Origin: Thermoplasmata archaeon
GTDB lineage: Archaea > Thermoplasmatota > E2 > JACPAO01 > JAHFTW01
Length of the DNA stretch: 64,000 nt
Direction of reading: 5' to 3'
NCBI GenBank assembly: GCA_034667725.1
Contig: JAXDQS010000012.1
Span: 1-64,000, forward strand
The stretch's first letter is position 1; each line of letters starts with the position of its first letter. The position numbers and the translations under genes were made by a program. This document shows, one piece after another, positions 31,117 through 41,638 of the stretch. A model generated the notes under the pieces. That model ran no database searches and was not told where the DNA came from. It saw only the letters and a program-made list of their open reading frames with translations.

Positions 31117-31510
31117 GGCGGCCGAGCTGGAGTACACGGTGATCGTGGCCACCCGCGACACCCGCGACGGGAAGGAGTTCCTCATGGTTCACCACGGCGA
31201 GCGCGGCTGGGAGCTGCCCGGCGGCAAGCTCGAGCCCAACGAGGGCCCCGTCCACTGCGCGCTGCGGGAGTTCCGCGAGGAGACCGGCCACCTCCTGGGC
31301 TCGCCGCACTTCGTCGCCAAGCTGCGCAAGGACAACGGCGTCTGCTTCATCTTCACGGGGACCCTGGGCTCGGCGGTCGAGTCCAAGGACAAGGAGGAGG
31401 TCGTCGGCGAGATGCGCTGGTTCGGCCGGCTGCCGCGCGAGCTGGGGCTGGCGTTCCCGGACGACCCCTACGCCGAGATGGGGCAGATGCTGGGGATCGA
31501 CTTCGGCTGA
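31073..31510 (+). CDS. NUDIX hydrolase
   Basis: WELPGGKLEPNEGPVHCALREFREETG Nudix box. Start uncertain. Confidence 0.9.
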   Translation: MTLAPTSGTKTKANEAAELEYTVIVATRDTRDGKEFLMVHHGERGWELPGGKLEPNEGPVHCALREFREETGHLLGSPHFVAKLRKDNGVCFIFTGTLGSAVESKDKEEVVGEMRWFGRLPRELGLAFPDDPYAEMGQMLGIDFG

Positions 31511-31513
31511 AGG

Positions 31514-32032
31514 TCACGAGTCGTAGAGCGACAGCCACAGGTCCGCGAACTCGCTCTTCAGTTCCGGCGTCGGCGCGTGCTCCAGCAGCAGCCGCTCGGT
31601 GGCCTTCGGGTCCGCGACCTCGAACAGGCCGTCCGGCGTCTTGCGCACCAGGCCGACCGCCTCCAGCTTGCGCAGGTGGAAGCTCAGCTTGCTCTTGCCG
31701 AGGCCGAGCGCCTCCGCGACCTGGCCGTGGCGCTGCGGCGCGCCCTGCTCCAGCAGGTGGAGCGTGACCTGGAGCGGGATGCGGCCGCGCAGCACGCCGA
31801 GCGCCTTGCGGGTGGCGGCGTCAGGGGTGCCGGGGCCCGGCGCGAACAGCCGTTGGTAGCGCTCCTCGCGCTGCTCCTGCAGCAAGCCTTCGGACAGCAG
31901 GAACTGGAGGTGGTACTCGACCAGCGCGACCGAGGTGCCGAGCCGGCGGGCGACGTCGCGCACGTGGAGGCCGGGATACTCGCGCACGAGGCGCACGATG
32001 CGGCGGCGGATGTCGAGCTCGCCCGCGGCCAT
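31514..32032 (-). CDS. Double winged-helix transcriptional regulator
   Basis: RRRIVRLVREYPGLHVRDVA...LVEYHL and a second wHTH KSKLSFHLRKL. Paralogue of 24130..24738. Confidence 0.9.
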   Translation of the reverse strand: MAAGELDIRRRIVRLVREYPGLHVRDVARRLGTSVALVEYHLQFLLSEGLLQEQREERYQRLFAPGPGTPDAATRKALGVLRGRIPLQVTLHLLEQGAPQRHGQVAEALGLGKSKLSFHLRKLEAVGLVRKTPDGLFEVADPKATERLLLEHAPTPELKSEFADLWLSLYDS

Positions 32033-32035
32033 GGC

Positions 32036-32335
32036 TCACGACCGGCGCAAAAACGGCGTCACCAGCAGGCCGACGATGACCAGGTCGAAGGCGCTGCCGA
32101 GGAACTCGAGGTGGCCGTGCGACAGGTAGCTGCTGGGATGGTTCGGGTCCTCCAGCAAGGCGTAGGCAGTGACTAGCGACTTGACACAGAACGCGAGGAA
32201 CGCGGCCGCGACATAGCCGAGCTTGCGGTTGCCGGTGCGGCGCCGCGCCTGCAACGCAAGGACGAACAGCCCGAACGAGACCACGGCGGTGCCGCCCACC
32301 AGGAGCAGGGTCACCGTGCTATGGGACTCCACCAT
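32036..32335 (-). CDS. Small 3-TM membrane protein co-transcribed with the wHTH regulator
   Basis: LALQARRRTGNRKLGYVAAAFLAFCVKS...FDLVIVGLL, a pattern recalled from DUF7521/DUF5985-like proteins. Confidence 0.75.
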   Translation of the reverse strand: MVESHSTVTLLLVGGTAVVSFGLFVLALQARRRTGNRKLGYVAAAFLAFCVKSLVTAYALLEDPNHPSSYLSHGHLEFLGSAFDLVIVGLLVTPFLRRS

Positions 32336-32391
32336 GCGCCACGGACGCCGCGTCCCTGGAAAAGGCGCGCGAAGCTTCCGCGGGCCGGACA

Positions 32392-32403
32392 CAAGGCTTA
32401 AGC
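32392..32403 (+). promoter_or_regulatory. BRE/TATA-like promoter of the His1-protein/copCD cluster
   Basis: CAAGGCTTAAG about 26 nt upstream of ATG 32428. Confidence 0.55.
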
Positions 32404-32427
32404 CGCTGGCCCCAAGTCGTTCAAACC

Positions 32428-33516
32428 ATGACAAAACCCGCGGTCCGGCTGGCGGCCTGCGCCATGCTCGCGGCCCTCCTGGCTGCGCCTGCCGTCCAGG
32501 CCCACGGCGCCCCGGTCCCGCGCACCATCGACACCCGCGTGCTGGCCGACGACGACGGCGCGCTCGGCTTCGGCGGCTGCGTCCCCGAGGTGGGCTGCCA
32601 AGCCGACGGCATCGACCTGCTGGCGCTCGACGTCCGCGAGGCCGCCGACGCCCTCGGCCGCCCCATGATCGCGTTCCGGGTCATCTTCCAGACCGAGCTG
32701 GACTCGCTGGCCGGCACCAGCTTCACGCTCTCCTTCACCGCCGGCGGCCAGGCCAAGACCGCCACCGTGACGCTGGCCGACGGCAACGCCACCAGCCCGG
32801 ACGCCGTGCGCGTCGAGGGCCCGGTCCCCGTCGGCGACCAGCACCCGCAGGCGGTCGACGTCTGGTTCCACAGCCAGCCGCTCGGCATCGCTCCAGGAGG
32901 AAGCACGCCGACCCTCGGCACCCAGCCCGGCGACGCCATCACGGAGATCAGGGTCACGAGCCAGGCCGGCGCGGACGGCGCCAACGACGCGATGCCCGGC
33001 ACCTGGACGACGCGCGGCCAGGCGGTCCCGTTCCTCCCGGAAGACCCGGAGCCCAGCGTCCCCGAGCCGGCGCCCGCCGGCAACTACACCGTCGCCGGCC
33101 CCGCCCGCCTCCTGAACGCCACCGCGCCCAGCCCCGTCCTCGTCCACCACGGCAACGCCACGGCGAAGGTCACGCTCCGGAGCACGGTGGACCTGCCGCA
33201 GTTCGCCAGCCTGCGCCTGGACGCCGCGGGGGCCAACGCGACCCTGGACGCCGCGGTCCTCAACCTGCCCGACCTGACGGCCCGCGACGTGACGGTCACC
33301 ATCCAGTCCGCGGCGCCGGGCGCCACCTTGGCCCTGCTGGTGTCCACCGACCTCGGCGGCTTCGAGCGCATCCCGATCCCCCTCATGGTGGAGGAGGAGC
33401 GCCACGAGCACACCGACCCGACCGCGCAGGGCTCCGAGACCGAGCCCGCCCCTGCCCTCGCCCCTGGCGTGACCCTTGCCGTGCTGGCCCTGGCCGCCCT
33501 GGCCCGGCGCCGGTGA
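32428..33516 (+). CDS. Surface protein with predicted mature N-terminal His and C-terminal sorting-like anchor
   Basis: Signal peptide ...AVQA|HG and C-terminal APG-hydrophobic-RRR. Confidence 0.85.
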   Translation: MTKPAVRLAACAMLAALLAAPAVQAHGAPVPRTIDTRVLADDDGALGFGGCVPEVGCQADGIDLLALDVREAADALGRPMIAFRVIFQTELDSLAGTSFTLSFTAGGQAKTATVTLADGNATSPDAVRVEGPVPVGDQHPQAVDVWFHSQPLGIAPGGSTPTLGTQPGDAITEIRVTSQAGADGANDAMPGTWTTRGQAVPFLPEDPEPSVPEPAPAGNYTVAGPARLLNATAPSPVLVHHGNATAKVTLRSTVDLPQFASLRLDAAGANATLDAAVLNLPDLTARDVTVTIQSAAPGATLALLVSTDLGGFERIPIPLMVEEERHEHTDPTAQGSETEPAPALAPGVTLAVLALAALARRR

Positions 33517-33564
33517 ACCACGCACAACGCCTATGGCCAAGTGCCCCCTCCTGGAGATGACCTG

Positions 33565-34638
33565 ATGCGCGCCCCCCTCGCCCTGCTCCTGCTGTCCGCC
33601 CTGCTCGTGGTCGCCCTGCTGCCCGGCGCAACCGCGCACGGGCCGCCGCAGCGCCGCGACCCCGACACCCGCGTCCTCGTCGACTGGAACGACGACTGCG
33701 GCGGCGACGGCGGCGCCTCCCTGGCCACCGGCGCCTGCCGCGGCTCGCACGACCTCATCGGCCTCGACCTGGTCGAGCGGCACGACGCCGGGCTCGGCGA
33801 CGTCGTGGTGTTCCGGTTCTTCCTCGACAAGGGCACGAGCGGCGCCCGCCGCGACACCCTCTCCGTCGGCACGCCCAGCGGCACGCAGAGCTTCAGCCTC
33901 ACCAGCAGCGACGCCGCCACCTTCACCGCCACCGGCTTCGACCGCAGCACCAACGCCCAGTCGCTCAACGACGGCACCCGCTTCGTGGTCGAAGGCACCG
34001 TCCAGCTCTCCAAGCTCGGCTCGCCCGGCCAGACCATCGGGCCGTTCAAGGTCGAGGCGTTCAACGGCAACCAGGTCGGCGACTACATGCCCGGCGGCTG
34101 CAACAACACGGTGGGCACCTGCCCCCCGCAGGACCCGGACGCGGACATCGCCTACGAGCTGCGGCAGTACAAGCTCGCCGGCCCCACCCACTACCTCGCC
34201 GTCACGGCGCCCTCCGCCACGCTCGACGTCCCGGCCGGCGGCGAGGCCGGCGTCACCTTCGACATCCACAACCAGCTTGCCCGCACGGCCCAGACCGTCA
34301 CCGTCGCCGCCATCCCCGGCGCGGGCGTCACGGCCGGCTTCCACGCCTCGGGCGCAAGCCACGACGCGCCCACCCAGCCCACCGCCACCCTCGACCTGGC
34401 CGCCAAGGGCGACGGCAACGTCCACCTCATGGTCAAGGGCTCCCAGGAAGGCGCCAAGGGCGTCGTCAAGGTCTGGTTCGACACCGACCAGGGCGGCCAC
34501 CAGTCCGTCGACGTGCCCTACCGCGTCGTCGCGCCCGGCGCCGCCTCGTCGTCCCCGGGCACCACCGCCAAGCCTGCGCCCGTCCCGCTGGCCCCGCTGG
34601 CCCTCCTGGCCGCGGCCCTCCTGCGGCGGTCGCGCTGA
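33565..34638 (+). CDS. Paralogous surface protein with predicted mature N-terminal His
   Basis: Signal peptide ...GATA|HG. Shares DTRVL, a Cys pair, DxMPG, YxxAGP and TDxGG with the upstream gene. C-terminal hydrophobic-RRSR. Confidence 0.85.
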   Translation: MRAPLALLLLSALLVVALLPGATAHGPPQRRDPDTRVLVDWNDDCGGDGGASLATGACRGSHDLIGLDLVERHDAGLGDVVVFRFFLDKGTSGARRDTLSVGTPSGTQSFSLTSSDAATFTATGFDRSTNAQSLNDGTRFVVEGTVQLSKLGSPGQTIGPFKVEAFNGNQVGDYMPGGCNNTVGTCPPQDPDADIAYELRQYKLAGPTHYLAVTAPSATLDVPAGGEAGVTFDIHNQLARTAQTVTVAAIPGAGVTAGFHASGASHDAPTQPTATLDLAAKGDGNVHLMVKGSQEGAKGVVKVWFDTDQGGHQSVDVPYRVVAPGAASSSPGTTAKPAPVPLAPLALLAAALLRRSR

Positions 34639-36293
34639 TGCGGCGCCCGGCCGCCTGGGCCTTGCCGCTGCTCTTGGCGGCCGTGCTGGCGGCGCCGCTG
34701 GCCGCCGGCCACGCCACCTTGGTCGAGTCGCACCCCGGCCGCGGCGACCGCCTGGCCGAGGCGCCCGACCGCGCCGTCGTGTTCTTCTCCGAGCAGGCCG
34801 ACCCCGGCGGCAGCTTCGTCCACGTCCAGGACGCGGCCACCGGCGAGCGTGTCGACCTGGGCGACCTCCGCTACGATGCCGACCCGCCACGACTCAGCGT
34901 CGGCCTGCCCGACCTGCCGGCCGGCGCCTACACCATGCAGTGGCAGGCGCTCTCCGGCCGCGACGGCCACACCACCTCCGGCGTCGTCGGCTTCGCCATC
35001 GGCAGCCACGAGCCCCCCGCCTCCTCCGAGTCCTCCAAGGACAGCGCCCGCCCCCTCGCCGTCGCCGCGCGCGTGTTCCTCTACGCCGGCTTCAGCCTCG
35101 CCTTCGGCGCCCTCGCGTTCCTCGCCTGGATGCCCGCCGACGCCCGCCCCCTCGCCCGCAAGGCGCTCGCCGCCGGCGCCGGCCTGCACCTTCTGGGCGT
35201 CCTCGTGCTCGCCCGCGAGACCGCCCTCAGCTCCAGCCTCCCCGTCGAGGCGTTCCTCGCCACCGGCACCGGCCAGATCCTCGCCTTCCGCGCCATCGTG
35301 GGGGCCGCCGCCCTGCTGGTCGCCGTCCTTGCGCAGCTGCGCCCCACCCGCACCGCCGCGCCCGCCGTCTTGCTGCTGCTGGCCGCCGCCGGCCTCGCCT
35401 CCGCCCGCCTCGGCCACGCCTCCAGCGAGGGTGTTGCCTTCATCGCGCTCGACTTCCTGCACCTTGCCGCCGCCAGCGCCTGGACCGGCGGCCTCGTCCT
35501 GTACGCCTGGTGGCTGCTGCGGTCCCCTGGCCCTGTCCCCGCCGGCGCCGGCGCGCGCTTCGGCGCCCTCGCCCTCACCGCCGTCGCCATCCTCGGCGGC
35601 ACCGGCGTCGTGCTGGCCGTCGCCATCCTTGGCGTCGAGCTTGCCGCAAGCGGCGCCGCCCTGTCCGCCGCGTGGGGCGTCTTCCTTGCGCTCAAGATCC
35701 TCGCCTTCGGCCTCATGCTGCTCGCCGCCACCGTCAACCGCTACGTTCTCTTGGAGCCCGAGCGCGCCAAGGGCCCTGTCGCGGCCCTGCAGCGCGCCGC
35801 CCGCGCCCTGTCGGGCGGGCGGCTGCGCGCAGGCCTCGCGGACGGCCGGCGGCTCGGCCGCTCGGTCGCCGTCGAGGCCGGGGTCGGCGCCGTCGTCCTC
35901 GTGCTGGCGGCGCTTTTGACCTCGGTGTCGCCGCCGACCGCCGACGCCGCCGCGCCCGGCGTGACGTTCGAGGCGCGCGGCGAGCACCACCTCGTGCGCG
36001 TGGCGTTCGACGACGCGCCCCGGTTCGGCGCCACCGGCCACGCCACCTTGACGGTGACCGACGAGGACGGCCAGCCCATCCAGAACGACTGCGGCCGGCC
36101 CAACTGCCTGGCGATCGAGCTGCGCTACCCGGACGGCGGCAGCGAACGACGCAGCGTCCCGGTGGAGAACGGCACCGCCTACCTGCACAGCGTGGTGTGG
36201 GCGGCGGCCGGCCCCGCCGAGCTCGTGGTCACGGTCTCGACGCAAGCGCACTTCGAGGACGTCGCGACGGTGGCGTTCACCATCGCCCCGTGA
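34638..36293 (+). CDS. Copper resistance/uptake CopC-CopD fusion
   Basis: AG|HATLVESHP...GAYTMQWQALSGRDGHTTSG (CopC) and LGHA, DFLHLAAASAWTGG, LKI...VNR, VEAGV (CopD). Confidence 0.93.
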   Translation: MRRPAAWALPLLLAAVLAAPLAAGHATLVESHPGRGDRLAEAPDRAVVFFSEQADPGGSFVHVQDAATGERVDLGDLRYDADPPRLSVGLPDLPAGAYTMQWQALSGRDGHTTSGVVGFAIGSHEPPASSESSKDSARPLAVAARVFLYAGFSLAFGALAFLAWMPADARPLARKALAAGAGLHLLGVLVLARETALSSSLPVEAFLATGTGQILAFRAIVGAAALLVAVLAQLRPTRTAAPAVLLLLAAAGLASARLGHASSEGVAFIALDFLHLAAASAWTGGLVLYAWWLLRSPGPVPAGAGARFGALALTAVAILGGTGVVLAVAILGVELAASGAALSAAWGVFLALKILAFGLMLLAATVNRYVLLEPERAKGPVAALQRAARALSGGRLRAGLADGRRLGRSVAVEAGVGAVVLVLAALLTSVSPPTADAAAPGVTFEARGEHHLVRVAFDDAPRFGATGHATLTVTDEDGQPIQNDCGRPNCLAIELRYPDGGSERRSVPVENGTAYLHSVVWAAAGPAELVVTVSTQAHFEDVATVAFTIAP

Positions 36294-36335: not shown

Positions 36336-36408
36336 GGGGTGGTAACTCAGCTGGGAGAGTGCCAGACTGAAGATCTGGATGCCGCCGGTTCGATCCCGGC
36401 TCACCCCA
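36336..36408 (+). tRNA. tRNA-Phe(GAA)
   Basis: Acceptor GGGGTGG/TCACCCC, anticodon arm CCAGA-CTGAAGA-TCTGG, T-loop TTCGATC. TTCAAATA box about 30 nt upstream. Confidence 0.96.
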
Positions 36409-36409
36409 C

Positions 36410-36851: not shown

Positions 36852-38516
36852 GTGGCGCCGCCCGTGCCGCGCCGCAAGGCCGACTGGGACGCCTCGACCT
36901 ACGCCAAGGCCAAGGCGAAGGCGCCGGAGCGCCAGGAGGAGTTCTCGACCTTCGGCGGCCGGCCCGTGGCGCCGCTCTACACGGCGGAGGACGTCGCCGG
37001 CGACCCGGACGCGAAGCTCGGCTACCCCGGCCTGCCGCCGTACACGCGCGGCGTGCAGCCCACGATGTACCGCGGGCGGCTGTGGACGATGCGGCAGTAC
37101 GCCGGCTTCTCCACGCCGGAGGAGTCGAACAAGCGCTACAAGATGCTCCTGCAACAGGGGAGCACGGGCTTGTCGGTGGCGTTCGACCTGCCCACCCAGA
37201 TCGGCATGGACTCCGACGACGAGCGCGCGCTCGGCGAGGTCGGCAAGGTCGGGGTCGCCATCGACTCGCTGCGGGACATGGAGATCCTGTTCGACGGCAT
37301 CCCGCTCGACAAGGTCACCACCTCGATGACCATCAACGCCCCCGCCGCGGTGCTCCTGTGCATGTACCTCGCGGTGGCCGAGAAGCAGGGTGTTGCGTTC
37401 GCCAAGGTCGGCGGCACCATCCAGAACGACATCCTGAAGGAATACATCGCGCGCGGCACCTACATCTTCCCGCCCGGCCCGTCGATGCGCCTCATCACCG
37501 ACACCTTCGCCTTCTGCGCCCGCGAGGTCCCCGAGTGGAACACCATCAGCATCTCGGGCTACCACATCCGCGAGGCCGGCAGCACCGCCGCCCAGGAGCT
37601 GGCCTTCACCCTCGCCGACGGCATCGCCTACGTCCAGGCCGCCGTCGACGCCGGCCTCCCGGTCGACTCGTTCGCGCCGCGGGTGGCGTTCTTCTTCAAC
37701 GGCCACAACGACTTCTTGGAGGAGGTCGCCAAGTTCCGCGCCGCCCGCCGCATGTGGCACCGCATCATGACGGAACGGTTCCACGCCAAGGACCCGCGCT
37801 CGTGGATGCTGCGGTTCCACACCCAGACCGCCGGCAGCACCCTCACCGCCCAGCAGCCCGAGAACAACGTCGTCCGCGTCGCCCTGCAAGCCCTCGCCGC
37901 GGTGCTCGGCGGCACCCAGAGCCTGCACACCAACGGCATGGACGAGGCGCTCGGCCTGCCTACTGAGAAGGCCGCCCGCATCGCGCTCCGGACCCAACAG
38001 ATCATCGCCCACGAGTCCGGGGTCGCCAACACCGTCGACCCGACCGCGGGCAGCTACGCCGTCGAAGCGCTCACGGACGCCTTGGAGCACGACGCCTTGG
38101 CCCTGATCGCGCGCATCGACGAGATGGGCGGGATGCTGCGCGCCATCGAGAAGGGCTGGGTGCAGGCGCAGATCCAGGACGCGGCCTACACCTTCCAGCG
38201 CGAGGTCGAGGAGTCCGAGCGCATCGTCGTCGGCGTCAACGACTACGCGTTGGAGGGCGAGGCGCCGATGGAGATCCTCAAGGTCGACGACGGCCCCGAG
38301 AAGGCGCAGCTCGCCAAGCTCGCCATCACCAAGGCCGCCCGCGACAACGCCGCCGTGACGGCGAAGCTGGCGGCGCTGCGGCAGGCGGCCCGCGAGCCCA
38401 AGGCCAACGTCGTGCCGTTCATCCTCGACGCGGTGCGCAGCTACGCCACCCTCGGCGAGATTTGCAACACGCTGCGGGCGGAGTGGGGCGAGTACGTGCC
38501 GGGGGCAACACTCTAG
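36852..38516 (+). CDS. Methylmalonyl-CoA mutase, large (substrate-binding) subunit
   Basis: [68 protein letters not shown]. No B12-binding domain. Confidence 0.96.
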
Positions 38517-38578
38517 CGCATCCACCACGTGGCCACACGCCTTTAGAGGCCAGCGTCCGGTCGGCCTGCGTCGGTGCC

Positions 38579-41500
38579 ATGCCCAGGACCCTGCTTTCCC
38601 GGAGCCTGCCCGCCCTCCTGGCCCTCGGCGCCCTCCTCGCCCTTGCCCCCTTGGCCCACGCGACGGCCCCTGACGCCGTGGTCTCCACCGGCACCGTCAT
38701 GGTCCTCGTCAACGCCAGCGGCGGCGTCGGCGAGCCGTACGTGGACCACGACCCGAACGAGGGGGTCGCCTGCCCCGTCCCGTCGGTGGCCGACTGCCAT
38801 CCCAGCACCTCAGGCAACGTGTACACCGGCATCCGCTACCTGCCCACCAACCACGACGCCTTCGGCCCGCGCGGCTTCGGGATGTGGGGCCTCTCCTACG
38901 ACACCGCCACGGCCTCGCCGGGCGGGCTGTGGTGCAGGGCCTCCGGCACCTGCGACGCGACCGGCGCGACGGCCACGGTGCGGCCGGCCGTCGCGCTTGT
39001 CGCCTCCGGCGCGTGCGGCGACCCCGTGGCCGCCTGCGCCGCCACCGCCTGCGTCGAGGCGCCTCCCGGCGGCGCCCCCGTGGTGCGCGCCTGCCGGGCC
39101 TACACCGCGGCCACCGCCCTCGGGGGCGGCGCGGTCGCCGACCTCGTGCAGGTGGAGGTGACGATCACGAACCTGCGCGCGACCCCGCTTGGCGGCATCC
39201 AGTTCCGCGAGACCCTGCCGCTCGGGCAGGACGCCCGCTCGGTGCCGTACACCTTCTGGCCGCCGGCGGCGCAGGACCTGGAGTGGCCCGGCAGCCACGT
39301 CTCCATCGGGATGGCCGGCGCCACGCCCGCCGCCCTGCGCTGCTCCTCGGACCTCTGGGTGCCCCTGGCCGGCGGCAACGGCGCCCCCCACGAACTGCCA
39401 GGCTGCGTCCCGCCGATGGCGTGGCCCATCCTGTACGGCCAACTTGGCAACGGCTGCGACCTGGGCGGCCCCGACCCCTACTACCGGCTCGGCCCCGGCA
39501 CGCTCTCCGGCGGCGCCCCGTTCGCGGACCACGGCCCCTGCGCCGTCCACGGCGCGACCTTCGAGGCGGCCCTCGGCGACCTCGCCGCGGGCGCGTCGCG
39601 CACCTTCCGCATGTGGATGGGCGCCGCCCCCGACGAGGCCACCGCGCTGTCGGACCTGGCGATGGTCGGCGCGCGCTTCCATGCCCTGTCGCAGCACGAG
39701 GCGGACCCCGCCACCCTCGGCGACCCCGCCGCCGGCACGCCCATCACGGGCGTCTGGGGCTGGGGCCCGCTCGACCCGCCGCAGGCGGACTTCGCCTGGA
39801 CGGCGCCCGCGCCCGCCTGGACGGTCCCCGGCTGGGCGCCCGGCACCGCCTGCCTCGGCGTCCCCGTCGCCTTCGCGGGCCTCGCCACCCCGGACTTCGC
39901 CGCCATCGCCTCCGGCCGCTGGACGTTCGGCGACGGCGCCGCCCACACGGAGTCGCCCGGCCCCGGCAGCCCGGCGCACGCCTACGCCACGGCCGGTGCC
40001 TACACCGTGCGCCTCGAGGTGCGCGACGCCGCCGGCGCCACCGCCACCGTCGCCAAGGCGCTGCTGGCGATGGACTGCGACGTGCCGCCCGTGGCCACCT
40101 TCACGATGGCGGGCGGGCCGGACTGCATCGACAGCCGCGTCCGGTTCTTCGCCACCGGCTCCCACGACCCCGACGGCGGCCCCGTCACGTTCGCGTGGGA
40201 CTTCGGCGACGGCGGCACGGCCACCGGCGACCCCGTCGTCCACCAGTTCCGCGACGCCACCCCCCTCACGGTGCGCCTCACGGTGGCCGACGACGACGGC
40301 CGCGCCGCCACCGCCTCGCTGCCCTACCCGCCGCCGGGCGACCCCAACTGCGTGCCCGACCTCGCGCCGCTCCCAAGCATGGTCGCCGTGCAGGGCGAGA
40401 GCATCACCGTCGCCCTGTCCGCCACCGACGCCGACGGTCCCACCCTGACGCTGCGCGCCGCCATCGGCAAGGACGACGGCCTGCTCGCGGCGGCCCCCGG
40501 CGTGACGGCGGCCACCGGCACCTACACCTTCACGACCGCCGGCTGGGACCCTGGCGTGCACACCCTCGTCTTCCAGGCCAGCGACGGCCTCGCCTACGAC
40601 GCCGAGCCCCTCCAGGTCCAGGTGCGCGGCCGCGAGTCCGACTCCGACCGCGACGGCGTCCAGGACGCGGCCGACAACTGCCCCGGCCTCCCCAACGGCG
40701 ACCAGGCCGACGCCGACCAGGACGGCACCGGCGACGCCTGCGAAGGCACCCCCGCCGCCATCCTCGCCCCCATCATCCCTGCCCGGCTGGGCCTGAGGCC
40801 CGACCGCGACCACGACGGCGTGGCCGACGGCGCCGACGCCTGCCCCGACGCGCCGGACCCCGCCCAGGCGGACGTGGACCGCGACGGCCTCGGCGACGCC
40901 TGCGACCCCGACCGCGACAACGACGGCGTCCCCGACGCCCGCCTGCCCCTCGGCGCCTTCCCCGACAACTGCCCCGACGACCCGAACCCCGACCAGGCCG
41001 ACGCGGACCACGACGGCGCCGGCGACGCCTGCGCCCCGCCCGCCGTCGGCGCGCCGCCCCGCGCGCGGCCGGCCGGCGCCGCCCTCGCCCCGCCCGCCGG
41101 CCCGCCCGCCGGCCTCTGGGCCGGCGTGGCGGCGGTGGCGGCCGGGCTGGGCGCGGCCCTGCTGCGCCGCCGCGCCATGGCCGCCCTCGTCGCGCTGTTC
41201 AGCCGGCTGCGCGGCCGCGACGTGCTGGAGCACCCGGCCCGCCTCCTGCTGGTGCAGGCGATGGAGCGCAGCCCCGGCCTTCCCACCAAGGAGTTGGCGC
41301 GCCTGTGCGGCCTCGGCCGCAGCAGCGCCAAGCACCACCTCGCCGTCCTGGCGGCCGCCGGCCTCGCCTGGAGCCAGCGCGCCGGCAAGTTCACCTGCCA
41401 CTTCGCCACCGAGGCGCACGCCGGCGAGGCCGCGCGCGCCCTGGTGCTGCGAAGCCCGCTTGCGCGCCGGCTCGCGGAGCTGGCCGCGGCCGCCCCCGGC

Positions 41501-41638
41501 ATCCGGCTGCCCGACGCCGCCCGCCGCCTCGGCGCCAGCTACAAGGCGACGTGGCACCAGGCGCGGCGCCTGCAGCGCGCCGGCCTGCTGGGCCCCGGCG
41601 CGACGGCGGGCCTCTGGCCGGCGGGCGCCCCCGGCTGA
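38579..41638 (+). CDS. Surface protein with PKD domains, thrombospondin type-3 repeats, TM and cytoplasmic double winged helix
   Basis: Signal peptide, WTFGDG/WDFGDG PKD motifs, DxDxDGxxDxxDNCP repeats, TM, then FSRL...VLEHPAR...SPGL...HHLAVL...APGI. Confidence 0.9.
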   Translation: MPRTLLSRSLPALLALGALLALAPLAHATAPDAVVSTGTVMVLVNASGGVGEPYVDHDPNEGVACPVPSVADCHPSTSGNVYTGIRYLPTNHDAFGPRGFGMWGLSYDTATASPGGLWCRASGTCDATGATATVRPAVALVASGACGDPVAACAATACVEAPPGGAPVVRACRAYTAATALGGGAVADLVQVEVTITNLRATPLGGIQFRETLPLGQDARSVPYTFWPPAAQDLEWPGSHVSIGMAGATPAALRCSSDLWVPLAGGNGAPHELPGCVPPMAWPILYGQLGNGCDLGGPDPYYRLGPGTLSGGAPFADHGPCAVHGATFEAALGDLAAGASRTFRMWMGAAPDEATALSDLAMVGARFHALSQHEADPATLGDPAAGTPITGVWGWGPLDPPQADFAWTAPAPAWTVPGWAPGTACLGVPVAFAGLATPDFAAIASGRWTFGDGAAHTESPGPGSPAHAYATAGAYTVRLEVRDAAGATATVAKALLAMDCDVPPVATFTMAGGPDCIDSRVRFFATGSHDPDGGPVTFAWDFGDGGTATGDPVVHQFRDATPLTVRLTVADDDGRAATASLPYPPPGDPNCVPDLAPLPSMVAVQGESITVALSATDADGPTLTLRAAIGKDDGLLAAAPGVTAATGTYTFTTAGWDPGVHTLVFQASDGLAYDAEPLQVQVRGRESDSDRDGVQDAADNCPGLPNGDQADADQDGTGDACEGTPAAILAPIIPARLGLRPDRDHDGVADGADACPDAPDPAQADVDRDGLGDACDPDRDNDGVPDARLPLGAFPDNCPDDPNPDQADADHDGAGDACAPPAVGAPPRARPAGAALAPPAGPPAGLWAGVAAVAAGLGAALLRRRAMAALVALFSRLRGRDVLEHPARLLLVQAMERSPGLPTKELARLCGLGRSSAKHHLAVLAAAGLAWSQRAGKFTCHFATEAHAGEAARALVLRSPLARRLAELAAAAPGIRLPDAARRLGASYKATWHQARRLQRAGLLGPGATAGLWPAGAPG

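Follow-up and report, generated by a model that had tools for sequence, protein, structure and literature searches.

A putative surface copper-capture system beside a YcnJ-like CopC-CopD gene in a Thermoplasmata archaeon

We analysed a 64,000-nucleotide stretch of DNA from a soil Thermoplasmata archaeon (NCBI GenBank assembly GCA_034667725.1, contig JAXDQS010000012.1, positions 1 to 64,000 of the forward strand; the whole stretch is called the window below), in which five genes at 31514–36293 form a candidate copper-handling cluster. Two exported paralogues, here named A and B, are encoded on the plus strand upstream of a CopC-CopD fusion (CopCD), and a double winged helix-turn-helix (wHTH) regulator and a small protein with three transmembrane helices (3-TM protein) are encoded on the minus strand. 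An earlier note on this DNA had proposed that A and B are surface proteins of an unrecognised family in which the mature N-terminal histidine (His1) belongs to a copper site and which feed CopD. We find that the protein family with A and B is real and new, that His1 is conserved in nearly all of its members, and that its genes recurrently adjoin CopCD genes. None of the computational outcomes named in the note as counting against its proposal was observed, and the proposal is supported overall. On balance it is probable that A and B are surface Cu(II)-capturing partners of a YcnJ-like CopC-CopD importer and functional analogues, not homologues, of Bacillus YcnI. Extracellular copper recognition and acquisition are poorly understood even in model bacteria, and to our knowledge almost nothing is known about copper acquisition in archaea. 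Systems in which an N-terminal-His copper protein partners CopCD are already known as a kind; it is the family that is new. The cluster would provide a well-defined, testable archaeal counterpart of the Bacillus YcnI-YcnJ pair, derived from an unrelated family with its own fold, paralogues, sensor-regulator pair and blue-copper fusions.

A protein family with a conserved mature N-terminal histidine

Genes A (32428–33516, plus strand, 362 aa) and B (33565–34638, plus strand, 357 aa; an alternative upstream start, GTG at 33541, was judged less likely) encode paralogues with 26% identity over 323 columns (BLASTP, E = 2e-10), and we propose, as part of the explanation that we favour, that their duplication is ancient. 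All of the motifs listed for the pair in the earlier note (DTRVL, a Cys pair, DLxxLD, DxMPG, YxxAGP, TAPS and TDxGG) are present in both proteins. Neither A nor B gave a Pfam match at E ≤ 1 or an NCBIfam match, and when 91 members were compared with Pfam the N-terminal domain was assigned to no family, while the second domain produced weak immunoglobulin (Ig)-like matches. Word-based searches recovered three relatives for A and 15 for B. When 1.84 billion cluster representatives were searched with a profile, 297 proteins were recovered at E ≤ 1e-3, 161 of them at E ≤ 1e-30, and were counted as family representatives at 50% clustering. No description of the family was found in literature searches. 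That A and B represent an unrecognised family is therefore upheld, with no Pfam or NCBIfam model and 297 representatives.

Among the genomes searched the protein family is restricted to Thermoplasmatota. It was present in 29 of 401 sampled genomes of the phylum, mostly from the window's own order, with a few in three taxonomic families of other classes; in the same sample, none of the remaining Thermoplasmatota families searched contained it. In a class scan, 25 of 31, two of four and one of two genomes, respectively, of three families of the window's order carried it. Clusters encode two to three paralogues, and in loci L001–L004 and L012–L020 the B-type gene is preceded by an A-type orthologue. 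A third, divergent paralogue was located at C3:75344-76336 of genome G000 (L028:6345-7337, plus strand). This 330-aa protein has an AEG|HN start, the same C-terminal tail and D-x-A-P-G in the position of DxMPG; in the metagenome-assembled genome (MAG) nzgw65 its orthologue (L002:5627-6754, minus strand) belongs to the copper cluster and is flanked by the regulator pair and by gene A.

Residue conservation was counted in an alignment of 147 sequences with a mean column identity of 15%, and signal-peptide cleavage was judged by the −3/−1 rule. His occupies position +1 in 140 of the 147 representatives (95%), preceded by a segment with a median of 24 residues. At a mean identity of 15%, this retention of a His after the signal peptide is far beyond chance. 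All His-bearing members (139/139) have A, G or S at −1 and A, V, T or G at −3, a classical signal-peptidase I pattern, so that cleavage is expected right before the His. In A the predicted signal peptide is encoded at 32428–32502 and the mature His (His26) by codon 32503–32505; in B the corresponding positions are 33565–33636 and 33637–33639 (His25), all on the plus strand. Two expectations, that the signal peptides of A and B are predicted to end just before His and that this residue is conserved in homologues, hence hold across the family. The hidden Markov model of the N-terminal domain (N-domain) starts at protein position 15–66 in all 152 complete-domain representatives and was never internal or repeated, even in multidomain members of 621 and 644 aa. 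Such invariable N-terminal placement is as predicted if a free amino terminus is required.

The other strongly conserved residues of the N-domain are largely acidic, comprising Asp16 and Asp149 (145/147 each), Glu47 (139/147) and Asp39 (133/147), together with Arg12 (137/147), Pro152 (136/147) and Met151 (125/147, with V, A, I or L in its place in about 14%). Gln219 of the second domain is conserved in 146 of 147 sequences. His1 is the sole His in alignment columns conserved at ≥90%. With no second conserved His, a classical two-His brace of the kind found in lytic polysaccharide monooxygenases (LPMOs) and CopC is not supported. The proposed His brace is consequently supported as regards the mature N-terminal His but not as regards a two-His arrangement. 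A YcnI-like site with a single His and carboxylates fits the conserved residue types better.

Links to copper and comparison with known systems

The gene downstream of B (34638–36293, plus strand, 551 aa) encodes a YcnJ-like CopC-CopD fusion with Pfam matches to CopC (59.7 bits, cut-off 23.3) and CopD (42.8 bits, cut-off 32.1) and an NCBIfam copper_CopD match (E = 7.9e-21). A signal peptide is followed by His25 (codon 34710–34712), the DGH ligand motif, the CopD membrane domain and a C-terminal domain of about 100 aa. The CopC domain begins AAG|HA, as the earlier note had read it, and its best relative of solved structure is the CopC domain of B. subtilis YcnJ (9c14_A, E = 5.4e-10), to which it aligns end to end, including His1 and DGH. 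The segment beyond CopD (35985–36293) contains a Cys pair and several His and is not recognised by Pfam, which also detected no YtkA-type C-terminal domain in the protein; in YcnJ the corresponding position is occupied by a YtkA domain. The stop codon of B and the start codon of CopCD share one base (TGATG), the overlap reported before and borne out here on the sequence, and the two genes are predicted to be translationally coupled.

The order A-B-CopCD is identical in four MAG loci and is also found in L012–L022. Adjacency, defined from compared genome-scan coordinates as a distance of no more than 2 kb between a family gene and CopCD, occurs in about 21 genomes, which represent three families of the order. 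In G296 and G262, which belong to other classes, a family gene again lies ≤2 kb from a gene for CopC or CopCD, with a different gene order. The arrangement varies elsewhere too, with the regulator downstream in L001 and convergent genes in G123. Synteny with copCD, as anticipated for homologues, is thus found repeatedly, in different genera and families and in two other classes.

A second line of evidence comes from fused domains. Seven of the 91 members compared with Pfam match PF00127 (plastocyanin/azurin; best E = 8.7e-11), and in this set a copper protein is the sole recurrent fused domain other than Ig-like domains. Among 160 representatives, five retain an intact type-1 copper loop (YHCHPHPxM) and six have His/Asp-rich linkers; others carry a Cys-less version of the loop. 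In genome G143, where CopCD was not found, the family protein beside the regulator pair carries PF00127 (43 bits). Judged from their sequences, these plastocyanin domains constitute a link to copper that extends beyond synteny and is independent of it. A search for longer fused forms found none, which is weak evidence. The window's own genome (90% complete) encodes a haem-copper oxidase (COX1, 530 bits) and has seven cupredoxin matches; neither DUF1775, for which the B. subtilis control was positive, nor PCuAC was detected in it.

The known system that most resembles the cluster is the ycnKJI operon of B. subtilis. YcnI (DUF1775) has a mature His1 and a C-terminal anchor and is encoded beside a CopC-CopD importer and a regulator, and YcnJ contains the CopC domain most similar to that of the window. 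In the YcnI site, Trp137 and the carboxylate ligand Glu50 both lie next to His1. Cu(II) is bound there by the N-terminal amine, His27 and Glu50, and YcnI ends in a C-terminal transmembrane helix (10.1101/2021.06.11.448128); YcnI and YcnJ exchange Cu(II) (PMC12362106). Amine, imidazole and one carboxylate would match the conserved residue types of A and B. However, PF07987 matches neither A, B and the 91 relatives nor the genome; YcnI is cupredoxin-like with about 130 aa, whereas A and B have an N-domain of 185 aa plus an Ig-like stalk domain; and the archaeal cluster has two to three paralogues and, in place of YcnK, a double wHTH and a 3-TM protein.

Other systems are more distant. CopC proteins (Cu(II) chaperones, C0-1 type) share the His after the signal peptide, a beta-sandwich and partnership with CopD, but PF04234 matches the downstream gene only, and A and B lack DGH and a second conserved His. 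LPMOs and X325/Bim1 proteins are likewise secreted with a mature N-terminal His, often His-Gly, and X325/Bim1 proteins in addition carry a lipid anchor and take part in copper acquisition; the second conserved His is missing from A and B, and LPMOs are absent from the listed fold matches. A post-signal-peptide His has been used to predict metalloproteins, in bacterial families only that are unrelated to A and B (PMC12537917). These signal-strapping families (DUF4198, DUF6702 and the Ang-1/Ang-2 'anglerases') have the His after the signal peptide and the association with permeases in common with A and B, but they are bacterial and defined by Pfam or otherwise, none matches A or B, and anglerases are appended to the permease whereas A and B are separate, anchored proteins.

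Structure models and competing explanations

AlphaFold2 with the 147-sequence alignment gave a two-domain model of B with a mean predicted local distance difference test score (pLDDT) of 93.4 and a predicted template modelling score (pTM) of 0.90, and the N-domain modelled alone scored nearly the same (pLDDT 93.1, pTM 0.90). In mature numbering the N-domain comprises residues 1–185 and the Ig-like domain residues 186–300. With a pLDDT of about 94 at residues 1–20, the N-terminus is predicted to be packed on the domain and not floppy. The second domain (modelled as 185–300) matches Ig-, MG- or S-layer-like sandwiches of a generic kind (Z about 11); it is plausibly a stalk, and it is the reason why fold searches with the whole model returned generic Ig-like matches only. 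With the N-domain, Foldseek found nothing at E ≤ 1e-3 (best E = 3.9e-3). A profile search of PDB sequences gave a single chance match (E = 0.52), and the ESM Atlas gave unnamed clusters and a weak Glucodextran_C lead only. VIA-align, in which Z < 8 is within the stated background, aligned the N-domain best with ethylbenzene dehydrogenase gamma (2ivf_C; Z 7.6, root mean square deviation 4.3, 132 residues aligned), CBM9 (1i82_A; Z 7.5), the cytochrome domains of cellobiose and pyranose dehydrogenases (Z 6.3–6.8), the DOMON domain of dopamine beta-hydroxylase (Z 6.2) and NxrC (Z 6.2). These weak but consistent whole-domain matches point to a DOMON/CBM9-like sandwich, with scores inside the background. 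DOMON, CBM9 and EbdC-gamma proteins thus give the best full-length structural likeness (Z 7.5–7.6, about 130 residues aligned), but there is no sequence signal, and their haem or sugar ligand residues are not evident in A and B.

In the explanation that we consider probable, Sec would export A and B, signal peptidase would cleave them just ahead of His1, and their hydrophobic-plus-Arg tails would keep them at the membrane, possibly after processing by archaeosortase A. We infer that the N-terminal beta-sandwich holds a Cu(II) site formed by the amine and imidazole of His1, Asp16, Asp39, Glu47, Asp149 and perhaps Met151. Such a site would be similar to the single-His brace in Bacillus YcnI, and the Ig-like domain would act as a stalk. 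A and B would serve as copper traps or buffers on the cell surface, in exchange with the His1/Asp/His site of CopC, and the copper supply would benefit an aerobic archaeon with a haem-copper oxidase and several cupredoxins. The divergent 3-TM protein, with an outward HxHLE motif, and a double-wHTH repressor would be a dedicated control pair.

Several observations weigh against this explanation. The family is present in genera g3 and g4 and in genomes G144 and G146, in which CopCD was not found with the query used; as some genera have the family and the regulator pair without a CopCD found, feeding CopD cannot be its sole role. The third paralogue at C3:75344-76336 adjoins a succinyl-CoA synthetase beta-like gene, away from copper genes. 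Six complete representatives without His1 (n = 6) retain the acidic residues, which may consequently have a separate structural role, and a carboxylate-rich site could favour metals other than copper (for example Ca, Mn, Fe, Zn or Ni). The regulator sequence contains no Cys and no obvious metal-sensing Cys/His cluster. Finally, LPMO, CopC, YcnI and PCuAC were not among the listed N-domain matches of Foldseek and VIA-align, and YcnI was not among the top 50 in either search.

We think it unlikely that A and B are instead redox proteins, in which a His1 site that takes electrons from cupredoxins (part of some family members, separate proteins in the window's genome) reduces Cu(II) to Cu(I) for transport or, in the manner of LPMOs, oxidises or oxygenates a substrate in the envelope or the environment. 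In their favour are the type-1 copper domains, electron-transfer modules with an intact Cys/His/Met loop, to which some members are fused, a 185-aa N-domain larger and more strongly conserved than a simple chaperone needs, its weak fold likeness to DOMON-type electron-transfer modules, and the seven cupredoxin matches in the genome. However, the cupredoxin occurs in only a minority of members and no substrate-related genes are conserved nearby; the missing second His and the lack of an LPMO among the listed fold matches point the same way. A bolder proposal, which we hold to be unlikely, unites redox activity with capture: A and B would be new-fold mono-histidine-brace cuproproteins acting as cupric reductases or oxidoreductases, and would form with the cupredoxins, the 3-TM sensor and CopCD a complete archaeal pathway of copper capture, reduction and import. 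The N-domain might also bind haem b as a DOMON-type domain, with axial ligation by His1 or Met151, and A and B would then be surface cytochromes anchored by a lipid or a transmembrane segment, like plant AIR12. Whole-domain VIA-align matches to haem-binding DOMON-like proteins (Z 7.6, 6.3–6.8 and 6.2) and the presence of Met151 in 125 of 147 sequences are compatible with haem, but all Z scores are below 8, haem-free CBM9 scores equally (Z 7.5), Met151 is replaced in about 14% of members, and strict N-terminal placement and the dominance of Asp and Glu suit a metal-ion site better; we give a haem domain very little credence.

The recurrence of CopCD adjacency across classes in varied gene order, a copper protein as the sole recurrent non-Ig-like fusion and the coupling of B to CopCD also make it improbable that A and B bind a metal other than copper (Ni, Zn, Fe, Mn or Ca), or that they serve chiefly as structural proteins of the envelope and neighbour copCD through shared envelope expression. 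Support for these alternatives comes from N-terminal-His families that bind several metals, such as DUF4198, which binds Ni (PMC12537917), and from conserved residues that are mostly Asp and Glu and are kept in members without His1. A structural role would also agree with the S-layer/Ig-like second domain (Z about 11) and with an anchor common to about 59 other open reading frames (ORFs), and either alternative with lineages that have no CopCD. If copper binding at His1, as we favour, is true, the family would represent a new structural class of N-terminal-histidine metalloproteins. A function would then be available for a Pfam-less family of about 300 sequence clusters, as would a marker of copper acquisition in soil and groundwater Thermoplasmatota.

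Regulator pair, C-terminal anchor and neighbouring genes

The regulator (31514–32032, minus strand, 172 aa, Cys-free) matches Pfam HTH_5 (E = 1.3e-15, 57.5 bits, above the Pfam cut-off) and HTH_24 (E = 1.2e-12) with two stretches each, as well as HTH_HVO_0163_N (39.1 bits). Its second wHTH is ArsR/SmtB-like, with 52 bits to NCBIfam HTH_metalloreg (NF033788; cut-off 55). The 3-TM gene (32036–32335, minus strand) ends 3 nt before the regulator start codon, and the two are predicted to be co-transcribed. Translation of the 3-TM gene most likely starts at ATG 32335 and not at TTG 32434, because homologues begin at the corresponding position; the product then has 99 aa. It gave only weak Pfam matches, to DUF7471 and 7TMR-DISM. 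In an alignment of eight orthologues, His73 is invariant in an H-x-H-L-E motif located in the loop before the third transmembrane helix. The positive-inside rule predicts that the loop is exposed on the outside, and we propose the motif as a putative sensing element.

Regulator orthologues adjoin a family gene in eight loci (L001, L002, L004, L019, L022, L023, L024 and L025), always with the 3-TM protein beside them, which agrees with the earlier association of the divergent pair with the family. Three of these loci (L023, L024 and L025) belong to genomes in which CopCD was not detected, and the pair is still beside the family gene. This retention suggests that the stable core consists of the sensor-regulator and the His1 protein or proteins, with CopCD as a frequent third partner. 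Regulation by the pair may act at the 92-bp divergent intergenic region (32336–32427), which is a possible promoter region. It contains two AT-richer boxes, GGAAAAGG and CTTAAG, about 25–30 nt from each start codon. Between the 3-TM start and the GGAAAAGG box lies an imperfect 10-1-10 palindrome (32339–32359; CCACGGACGC / GCGTCCCTGG), a possible operator for which no evident counterpart was seen in L002 or L004.

The predicted anchors of A (about 33445–33513) and B (about 34573–34635) follow the tail pattern of the family, in which a Ser/Thr-Pro-Gly/Ala-Pro box precedes a hydrophobic stretch that is followed by an Arg cluster; a true PGF is present in some relatives. Neither A nor B matched the PGF-CTERM model TIGR04126. 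The best relative, P0102, reached 18.1 bits (cut-off 24.5), and other relatives gave sub-threshold Heimdall-, Loki- and MYXO-CTERM matches. The tails had been likened to archaeosortase signals; their hydrophobic-plus-Arg form was found in both proteins, but a signal of archaeosortase type stays below the model cut-offs. An archaeosortase A homologue (TIGR04125, 125 bits combined) was identified at C10:252081-252941. About 59 ORFs of the genome end in a hydrophobic stretch plus RR or RRR, often after an SPAP, APGP or true PGF box. The tails look like a genome-wide variant of the PGF-CTERM sorting signal that is scored below current cut-offs, and archaeosortase processing of A and B is plausible; a plain C-terminal transmembrane anchor would serve the model equally well.

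The G+C content of the window is 70–77%, and the public loci nearest to it are from Thermoplasmata or Thermoplasmatota MAGs. Directly 3′ of the CopCD gene, a tRNA-Phe (GAA) gene at 36336–36409 (plus strand) ends the cluster. On the other side, a NUDIX-like gene (31184–31510, plus strand) adjoins the regulator and has orthologues of 71–73% identity in the same place in L002, L004, L021 and L022. Its placement probably reflects plain conserved gene order outside the copper system. Farther downstream, a large surface protein (38462–41638, plus strand) has a cytoplasmic tail that resembles free double-wHTH regulators, which suggests that this type of regulator is used several times in the genome.

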